The notes under the pieces were generated by a model. The model saw only the letters and a program-made list of their open reading frames with translations, had not been told where the DNA came from and searched no databases. Of a stretch of 64,000 bases of DNA, positions 37,801 through 40,800 are shown piece by piece. The stretch is from Eledone cirrhosa (lineage: Eukaryota). The DNA is taken from NCBI GenBank assembly GCA_964016885.1, contig OZ024759.1, forward strand, positions 10,912,001-10,976,000, written 5' to 3'. Both the position numbers and the translations under genes were made by a program. Numbering within the stretch: position 1 is the stretch's first letter; every line of letters begins with the position of its first letter.

Positions 37801-40800
37801 CTTGTCGTCACATGGTACCATGGGCCCAGCACTATGTGTCAATAATTGTCACAAGTGTAGTGTTTGTACCAGAGTTTTCAAGTCGCTGGCTGGACTAAAA
37901 AGTCACTCGTTCAGCGCATCGGTAGGGGTTTTCCTATATGGATATAAAGTAGTGGCCGTACTCGAAAACGAGTTGGCAGCCACCATGTTTGTATGTATGT
38001 ATATATATGTGTATATATATATGTATATATAGATGTATATATAGATGTGTATATATATATATATATATATATTAATTCAAAATATTAACAAGATAGATAT
38101 TCTTGTGATCAAGTATATTTTATTATACATATTTCAGAGGTACTGAGTTAAGTTCTACAGTACGTCCTCATCAGGTAAAATAAGATGATGCATGACATAC
38201 ATGGTACTATGACTGAATCTTAACCATCTACTATGTCAGGGTATGTCATGCATCATCTTATTTTATCTGATGAGGACGTACTGTTGAACTTAACTCAGTA
38301 CCTCTGAAATATGTATAATAAAATATACTTGATCACAAGAATATCTATCTTGTTAATATTTTGAATTAATATATATATATATATATATATATATATATAT
38401 ATATATATATATATATATATAGAGAGAGAGAGAGAGAGAGAAAGAGAGAGAGAGAGAGAGAGAGAGAGAGAGAGAGAGAGAACACTGGAAGGTAGAGCAC
38501 TCAGTCTATGGGGCGAGTTTGGTAGAAGTGGTTACACAACAGTTAGTTCACCATACCAAGAACAATTGTTTCTCGGTATGGTGATCTAACTGTTGTGTTA
38601 CTACTTATATATATATATATATATATATCATCATCATCATCATTTTACGTCCGCTTTTCCCTGCTTGCAAGGGTGGGACGGGTCTTATTCAGCACAGCAT
38701 CTCTCCACTTGTCACGCTCCTTCGTCATCTCCACCGTGAGCTTCAATGATCTGAGGTCTGTTCTCACTAACTCCACCCACGTTTTTCGTGGTCTACCTCT
38801 ACCATGTCTTCCTTCAACTGGCATTTCCTGGCACTTCTTCACCCATTGGTCATCCTCCATGCGCATCACATGTCCATATATATATATATATGTATATATA
38901 TATTAATAAAAGGAATTCCAACTTTGTCTGATTTACTTGTTTTATTTACAATCCTTTAACATTTATAATGGTATTCGAATGAAATAGTATAGTAGAATAT
39001 TAAATGTCAAGTGTTTATTGAACAAGTACTTTCAAGCTTTCGCAATCTTCAGGTTCATATTGTGTGGTGACAGTCAAGTTTGCAATTTTCAACTGTTGAA
39101 AATTGCAAACTCGACTGTCACCACATATTATGAACCTGAAGATTGCGAAAGCATGAAAGTACTTGTTCAATTAACACTTGACATTTAATATTCTACTATA
39201 CTATTTCATTCGAATACCATTATACATTTTAAAGGATTGTAAATAAAACAAGTAAATCAGACAAAGTTGGAATTCCTTTTATTAATATAATCTTCTATAC
39301 ACAATCATACACACCCGTGTATATTTATCTCTCTCTCTCTCTCTATATATATATATATATAAATATATCATCATCATCATCATCATCATCAGGTTTAGCG
39401 TCCGTGTTCCACGCTTGCATGGGTTTGGACGGGGGTTTTCCCACTTGAGGCAAGAGTGGTTGTCTTGCTCGCATAGGACTGTCTGGCGTGTTTTCTACAG
39501 TTGGATGCCCTTCCTAACACCAACCACATTTACAGTGTGGGGCTGGGAGGTTTTTACCGTGTTGCCTACACGGCCACATTACAGCGTGGACTGTGTGTTT
39601 TTTTGTTGTGACACCTACACGATCTCATTTGTTTCGGCCTGGATGTTGTGGGACCAACATAACTGTACATTGAAAGGGGCGGTGTGGATGGGGTGGAGGT
39701 GGTGGGACGGGGGGGTGTTTTGATAGAGATGCCTACTGACTGTAGTAGGTTTTTACTTTGTATTTACTTTGTATTTACTTTGTATTTACTTTATATATAT
39801 GTATATAATATACTCACCCTATGGACTGAGTGCTCTCTCTCTCTCTCTCTCTATATATATATAAGGTATATATATATATATATATTAATATATATATATA
39901 TGTATGTATATATATATATATATATATATATATATATATATATATATATATATATATATATTGTTATACTTTGGGAGGGTCATGTTGCCAATAAGTTTTC
40001 AGATAAAGAATCTTGCTAAACAAATTCAGAAACGAAATATATATATATATATATATATATATATATATATATATAATTGTTTCTACTTTTGGCGCAAGGC
40101 CAGCAATTGTCCTTGTACATTACTGGTATTTTATTTTATCAACCCTGTAAGGATGAAAGGTAAAATTGACCTTGGTGGGATTTGAACTCAGACCATAAAG
40201 GGTTGTGACTCTCTCTCTATATATATATGTACTGGGTGTATTTTATCGTGACACCAGTACTACCACTTTACAGAGTGTACTGGGTGTATTTTATCATGAC
40301 ACCAGCACAACCACTTTACAGAGTGTACTGGGTGTATTTTATCATGACACCAGCACAACCACTTTACAGAGTGTACTGGGTGTATTTTATCATGACACCA
40401 GCACAACCACTTTACAGAGTGTACTGGGTGTATTTTATCATGACACCAGCACAACCACTTTACAGAGTGTACTGGGTGTATTTTATCATGACACCAGCAC
40501 AACCACTTTACAGAGTGTACTGGGTGTATTTTATCATGACACCAGCACAACCACTTTACAGAGTGTACTGGGTGTATTTTATCGTGACACCAGCACTACC
40601 ACTTTACAGAGTGTACTGGGTGTATTTTATCATGACACCAGCACTACCACTTTACAGAGTGTACTGGGTGTATTTTATCATGACACCAGCACAACCACTT
40701 TACAGAGTGTACTGGGTGTATTTTATCATGACACCAGCACTACCACTTTACAGAGTGTACTGGGTGTATTTTATCATGACACCAACACTACCACTTTACA

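Follow-up and report, generated by a model that had tools for sequence, protein, structure and literature searches.

Head-to-head pseudo-LTR ends of a Penelope-like element form a palindrome centered on a predicted transcription start in Eledone cirrhosa

Results

A hammerhead-bearing palindrome with a one-sided tail

The window analyzed here is a 64,000-nt stretch of the Eledone cirrhosa genome, in which an inverted repeat occupies positions 38899-39289. As described in the earlier note, the repeat is centered on 39094 with a 1-nt spacer. Pairing extends to 38899 and 39289, and 7 of the 195 pairs are mismatched. The tail-less arm (38899-39096, minus strand) is the 3' part of a pseudo-LTR (pLTR) that runs outward from the parent element's predicted +1 at 39096 and ends as a TA-rich tract merging into the (TA)n target. 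The second arm (39092-39289, plus strand) is the same pLTR part with its predicted +1 at 39092. The two arms overlap in their first five bases, with one central mismatch, at the joint (39092-39096), where transcription of the parent is predicted to start. Each arm carries a 39-nt hammerhead motif, at 39131-39169 on the plus strand and at 39019-39057 on the minus strand. The earlier note had also placed TA on both flanks of an element spanning 38901-39287, which did not hold on the right, where the arm runs on for ~39 element-derived bases (39290-39328, plus strand). This one-sided tail is also present in numerous further copies as well as in intact parents, where it leads on to the start of ORF1, and the whole insertion extends to ~39328. 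Read from the sequence, the insertion is bordered by a (TA)n target on the left (38878-38898) and by a (TC)n/(TA)n tract on the right (39329-39367); a target-site duplication is not readable at this insertion, which sits in (TA)n.

An assembly artefact was ruled out by the 7 differences between the arms, the tail on one arm, the unmirrored flanks and the variation of joints among loci. The contigs compared with the locus display neither starts nor ends nor splice joints. None of the listed contig pieces spans the center at 39094 by 31 letters on each side, and these pieces neither confirm nor deny the locus. Overall, the palindrome consists of two ribozyme-bearing ends (the pLTR 3' part) of a Neptune/Nematis-type Penelope-like element (PLE) joined head to head; it is a real, ordinary product of a known retroelement class and is new as a family member. 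Elsewhere in the window, a 48-bp tandem repeat forms two arrays (8463-9942 and 44036-45338) that lie 34 kb apart in opposite orientation and are ~95% alike.

The parent is a Penelope-like element with intact copies

The parent PLE anticipated in the earlier note exists, as the genome contains copies with intact reverse transcriptase (RT) and GIY-YIG domains. A first look returned at least 1040 candidate arm copies, 40 of which were scored, and 5 of the first 30 arm loci continue upstream into shared sequence comprising the end of the RT, a C-x4-C-x2-C linker and GIY-YIG. The parental ORF2 is an intact 775-aa frame in many copies and matches RVT_1 (E = 2.9e-6, just under the curated cut-off) and GIY-YIG (E = 3.2e-6). 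Its endonuclease (EN) contains a CxxC and two His, read from the translation, with the C-x4-C-x2-C motif upstream of GIY-YIG. Among 12 fetched long copies, L061, L063 and L066 are partial tandems with a 4202-bp unit, ordered as upstream pLTR part, arm, tail, ORF1 (~450 aa) and ORF2; arm and tail serve as the pLTR, and the pLTRs of these tandems carry the hammerhead motif. With its RT and GIY-YIG domains, pLTR tandems, inverted truncated copies and one-sided tail, the parent has the makeup of an EN+ PLE. In the accessible text of Craig et al. 2021 (PMC8557442), Neptune and Nematis are characterized by a CX2-5CxxC linker between RT and EN and a CCHH motif in EN, both of which the parent has. The parent's linker, by that definition, and its (TA)n targeting are the two traits that suggest a placement with Neptune/Nematis.

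The closest eukaryote-named relatives of the parent protein are from bivalves. Further close relatives (matches P0006, P0010, P0068, P0093 and P0114) are filed under bacterial gill symbionts of bivalves, and these labels probably reflect host contamination in symbiont assemblies. ORF1, ~450 aa from its first Met, gave no convincing Pfam match and overlaps ORF2 by ~90 bases (L061:2299-3645 and 3555-5879; L064:8482-9909). ORF2 lacks a Met close to its start; a candidate -1 frameshift site in the overlap consists of six U and a following A, and no stable structure was found downstream of it. In two copies (L013:970-1160 and L023:1070-1180), a short repeat that also occurs near window positions 40080-40200 directly follows the ORF2 stop.

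Hammerhead motifs are intact in the family and weakened in one arm

Of the pair of 39-nt hammerheads originally proposed for this palindrome, the right-arm motif passes a minimal type I descriptor, as did none of 20,000 dinucleotide shuffles of that arm, and the left-arm motif does not. The right motif, with its cut predicted after 39164, has the family-majority form, and the same 39 bases are found in 7 of 8 intact parents and in 30 of 66 arms; altogether 45 of the 66 arms pass the descriptor. The left motif fails because a private A>U change (GCUU, in 1 of 66 arms) leaves 2 pairs in stem II. The majority motif combines a CUGANGA and GAAA core with an NUH site, a 5-bp helix I and a palindromic helix III, and its stem II comprises 3 bp with a GAAA loop, closed by U10.1-U11.1 rather than G10.1-C11.1. 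Dimerization through the palindromic AGUACU of helix III had been suggested, and the hexamer is indeed self-complementary, with a computed dimer energy of -16.4 kcal/mol versus -4.2 kcal/mol per monomer. The folding energy of the motif is no better than that of shuffles (z = -0.28), i.e., the motif is not unusually stable. Hammerhead families were absent from the best 150 of 381 Rfam matches in the window, these 150 being simple-repeat matches to microRNA models.

Conserved stem pairing and core had been named as the test of the hammerhead assignment. Core and stems are kept across the family, but without covariation or extra conservation: the motif is conserved in arms at 0.93, versus 0.94 for the rest of the arm, none of the 13 polymorphic columns lies within it, and no compensatory change was found in the stems of this family, which is too young for covariation. 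This is expected of dead copies of a young family. A search for related families with other stems returned 87 matches, mostly point mutants of the same family, and no related family among them. In the other hammerheads of the window (38267-38310, 58593-58640 and 33600-33640), as inspected by eye, the base directly preceding GAAA tends to be a pyrimidine that pairs with G or A, and helix II tends to be interrupted after a few pairs by a mismatch or bulge. By this inspection, G10.1-C11.1 is not the rule among hammerheads of this genome.

The two motifs lie on opposite strands and therefore only one is present per transcript. Read-through RNA is predicted to fold as one long hairpin, with pair probabilities of 0.0 for hammerhead stems I and II; such a hairpin would bury the motif, so the two would not act as a pair. 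The predicted cut falls 73 bases downstream of the predicted start, at a point where neither arm ends, which argues that the arms were copied from uncut RNA. We infer that the hammerheads were carried along as part of the pLTR; the parental motifs would cut 73 bases below the start, but would probably need to dimerize or be assisted by protein to do so.

The palindrome joint coincides with a predicted transcription start

To avoid bias in mapping 5' ends, an anchor motif near the far end of the arm was chosen, and 74 of the first 75 of its 7611 exact matches were mapped. Thirty-one of the 74 ends fall at -3 to +7 around the first A of the parental ACAGTTG. Another 6 lie at +8 to +21 and 19 further down, some of them representing internal deletions, and upstream there is 1 end between -100 and -4, with 17 further upstream or beyond the fetched stretch. 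The 31 piled-up ends represent 26 loci, and an inverted partner is present at 24 of the ends and lacking at up to 7, so the stop needs no fold-back. Among the first 50 of 1285 joints, inspected by eye, 21 are exact and a further 22 retain the complete parental start in one arm or both, in many cases with short insertions that copy arm sequence; the other 7 are shorter or mutated, and none of the 50 enters the upstream parental sequence by more than 1 base.

The usual distance of a TATA box from the start is 31 bases, and TATAWAAR is its consensus. Of 30 parental rows, two of which duplicate a place, 24 have this consensus exactly 31 bases above the A, a count that stands without a spacing control in an AT-rich genome where TATA-like words are common. 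The remaining rows comprise five one-base TATA variants and one TA-repeat flank. The box at -31 is found in two parent subfamilies with differing neighboring bases, and CCAAT-like words occur further upstream. Identification of the palindrome joint with the parent's predicted transcription start is thereby well supported at the sequence level.

Two further palindromic hammerhead families of the window were compared. The neighboring palindrome (38070-38370) carries a different hammerhead family and is unrelated, as the earlier note had stated, with a 22-nt AT-rich stretch (E = 0.017) as the best shared match. Its family has a TATA box at -31 in 6 of 7 long copies, with arms that start just below the box, and 21 of 29 ends lie at +3 to +7, most at +6, in a comparison for which +1 was picked with the TATA box in view and the sample query began at +3. 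No parental ORF was found for the neighboring family, whose long copies go on for over 1 kb as AT-rich non-coding sequence, and no match to ORF2 appeared by tblastn in the 30 loci of this family or in the window. Many arms of this family (L111, L113, L119, L128, L130, L132 and L136) are joined at their 5' end to an early-stopped inverted piece, often the tail only (~95 bases), as would be expected if a second cDNA can be short.

The third family (window 58320-58785; tail ~95 bases; 2018 exact motif matches by pattern search) was examined as a prediction. Twelve of 30 ends lie at -3 to +7 of a pyrimidine-A step, with no TATA box; a pyrimidine tract lies upstream, and the commonest joint is at a self-complementary hexamer just below the fixed 5' end. 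A splice-junction origin of this end was considered and was not supported. Taking TATA box and fixed end together for each family, the start reading is therefore well supported for the present family, partly supported in the neighbor and weakly in the third. A solo minus-strand hammerhead arm of the third family's type, joined to an inverted tail-like piece, is also present at 33540-33810.

Arms vary by locus, with one tail and a randomly oriented central base

The exact palindrome center is shared by 582 places in the genome, and 1285 places have a palindromic joint within 24 bases. Arms were compared in the window copy and in 49 of the first 50 listed places, the one left out being already in the sample; both arms are whole in 33 of these 50 palindromes, and one arm is broken or shortened in the others. 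Mean arm divergence is 2.1% within a locus versus 5.0% between loci, and distances between loci are 4.8% for long-long, 5.1% for short-short and 5.0% for long-short comparisons. At the 13 polymorphic columns, agreement within loci is 0.94 versus 0.56 when permuted, and 0 of 2000 permutations reach 0.94. The palindromes carry several subfamily haplotypes, that of the intact parents included. Arms group by locus and parent subfamily and not by side, indicating that the palindrome formed repeatedly from parent RNA. Partner arms of one locus also share 44 of 151 rare variants, which together with their low divergence would require, if two cDNAs were involved, one RNA or source locus for both, or later gene conversion.

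All 33 complete palindromes have exactly one tail; over all 50, one tail is present in 41, none in 9 and two in 0. The orientation of the central base relative to the tail side is split 18:15 among the 33 complete copies (p = 0.73 against even), and both orientations are represented in copies that have identical arms (4 and 5) as well as inside a single subfamily.

Discussion

The reading that we hold somewhat more probable than its alternatives taken together is that the feature represents promoterless head-to-head pLTR ends of an EN+ PLE, likely produced when two cDNAs, in a single insertion event, both extended to the 5' end of the sense RNA. Transcription by RNA polymerase II would begin with the A that lies 31 bases downstream of the TATA box in the pLTR. 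The element protein would then cut both strands of a (TA)n run, as the (TA)n flanks and the GIY-YIG domain suggest, and each free 3' end would prime cDNA synthesis from one of two TA-rich tracts that lie ~195 and ~235 bases downstream of the start, with the stretch between them becoming the tail. Both cDNAs would run off at +1, where the pile-up of ends is observed. Their 3' ends could anneal through five bases, with the central T-T mismatch repaired either way, or could be joined with small templated inserts, after which gaps would be filled. We give about even chances to the more specific proposal that this is a strong-stop-like PLE product, in which the tail-bounding sites in the sense RNA's 5' leader would be primed by both cut ends, and the two cDNAs would run to the cap site and be joined at their 3' ends.

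Two other accounts concern the nature of the unit and of its fixed end. The 582 copies with an exact common center and the same two end points are what would be expected of a non-autonomous MITE- or retrozyme-like element that is copied as a unit with a functional ribozyme pair. This account is highly implausible and already largely refuted, however, as long arms are no nearer to long arms (4.8%) than to short arms elsewhere (5.0%), several subfamily haplotypes, including the intact parents', are found among the palindromes, and 703 of the 1285 joints do not have the exact form (counts from slightly different patterns). Moreover, the palindrome retains no promoter, its ribozymes lie on opposite strands, buried in the predicted read-through hairpin, and no fixed unit with left and right ends of its own was found. 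The fixed end itself might mark a strong RT stop or an RNA-processing site, caused, for instance, by a small 5' hairpin or another cutting activity, instead of a transcription start; the first 27 bases of the predicted transcript are computed to fold as a short hairpin, and the third family combines the lack of a TATA box with a pyrimidine tract ending near an AG. We consider such a stop improbable in view of the one-sided edge (31 ends at -3 to +7 against 1 in the 97 bases above), whose distance from the TATA box is canonical in two unrelated families and which is 73 bases away from the hammerhead cut; third-family ends extend as far as 8 bases upstream of the AG.

The joint could alternatively derive from a single tail-primed cDNA that reaches the fixed point, folds back on its terminal bases and copies itself until a TA-rich tract allows joining to the other target end, with the center later flipped at random through recombination or template switching between arms. 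Arkhipova et al. 2013 (PMC3846280) proposed that junctions of this type arise by self-priming with an antisense template, and leave the question open in the part of the text available. A snap-back would account for the single tail in 33 of 33 palindromes and for the shared rare variants without a second priming event, and the templated inserts at joints resemble snap-back attempts. The closeness of partner arms is predicted by snap-back as well as by two cDNAs from one shared RNA or source locus or by gene conversion, which counts against the two-cDNA reading, as do the third family's fixed 5' end without a TATA box and the TA-rich nature of both end points here, since start sites of Poseidon are not homologous to the cut DNA (PMC11167929, accessible text). 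The central base tells against snap-back: snap-back of one tail-bearing cDNA would fix its orientation from the tail side, but the observed split is 18:15, so that without flipping 18 of 33 copies, including 4 with identical arms, show the opposite orientation, and flipping would need to be complete, at 50:50, while the arms are still free of mutations. A random central base follows directly from two +1-ending cDNAs annealing with a T-T mismatch. Snap-back is thus a plausible but rather unlikely origin, and the data suggest a better fit to two sense-templated run-off cDNAs than to the published antisense self-priming.

Much of what is seen at this locus is known already, as head-to-head pLTRs, one-sided tails, (TA)n targets and opposite-strand minimal hammerheads are PLE traits described in the published texts accessible to us. 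Added here are the fixed 5' end 31 bases below a TATA box, the strict one-tail rule and the randomly oriented central base. The recurrence of one design in unrelated families had been taken as a sign of a common mobilization mechanism rather than chance; that inference stands, but the design corresponds to a by-product of PLE integration described in PMC8557442, PMC3846280 and PMC4209133, as far as their accessible text goes, and not to a new element class. The formation of PLE head-to-head inversions is stated to be open in the available parts of PMC8557442 and PMC3846280, and no tie between the PLE inversion point and the transcription start was found in the open-access literature, including the accessible text of these two papers. 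The present family supplies hundreds of products that are young, almost identical and joined at a fixed point, together with the one-tail rule, a random central base and intact parents, so the sense two-cDNA and self-priming models differ in predictions that can be checked. If the two-cDNA reading is true, strong-stop-like double priming would account for both the inversions and the one-sidedness of the tail with no need for antisense templates, and palindrome centers would provide a genome-only map of the transcription start of each PLE family.

The insertion resembles those of EN+ PLEs in the accessible text of PMC8557442, which describes an inverted 5'-truncated copy beside an insertion that has a 30-40-bp tail on one side and (TA)n as its target, and of PMC3846280, which describes head-to-head junction palindromes and a pLTR with TATA and initiator-like motifs. 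The head-to-head copy, one-sided tail of 30-40 bp, (TA)n target, partial tandems and TATA plus initiator-like pLTR motif are thus shared. In contrast to those insertions, both halves here are reduced to the pLTR part below the predicted start, and their meeting point is constant across hundreds of copies. The hammerheads likewise match those published for PLE pLTRs in PMC4209133, which reports, in its accessible part, minimal dimer-dependent motifs with low in vitro activity and dual opposite-strand motifs 100-700 bp apart. The intact core, 5-bp helix I and palindromic, dimer-requiring helix III are held in common, whereas helix II is 3 bp here and 7-8 bp in the Schistosoma families, and U10.1-U11.1 replaces the conserved G-C. 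A U10.1-U11.1 mismatch is tolerated in natural hammerheads according to the text available of PMC3088659.

The proposed formation is most similar to that of Poseidon, whose PAc protein cuts and extends both strands in vitro (Frangieh et al. 2024, PMC11167929). In the portion of that study available, cDNA starts at two internal RNA sites that bound the tail, uncut RNA is used and hammerhead cleavage is dispensable; cutting and extension of both strands, two tail-bounding start sites and independence from hammerhead cleavage would, as proposed here, apply equally to the present family. Poseidon belongs to another clade, however, and its start sites, located in an AC-rich stem-loop within the ORF, lack homology to the target, in contrast to the TA-rich tracts upstream of ORF1 here. 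Twin and dual priming have been described for LINE-1 (PMC2837659, accessible text), where both nicked strands also prime cDNA and inverted pieces are joined within the insertion. LINE-1 twin priming yields two non-overlapping pieces with an internal deletion, whereas both cDNAs here would cover the same 195 bases to a fixed end. Finally, the palindrome is short, non-coding and PLE-derived with a type I hammerhead, as are animal non-LTR retrozymes in the accessible text of bioRxiv 10.64898/2026.07.22.740005. Those elements are head-to-tail tandems with ribozymes on the same strand, in contrast to the promoterless head-to-head pair found here, which is accordingly not a retrozyme.
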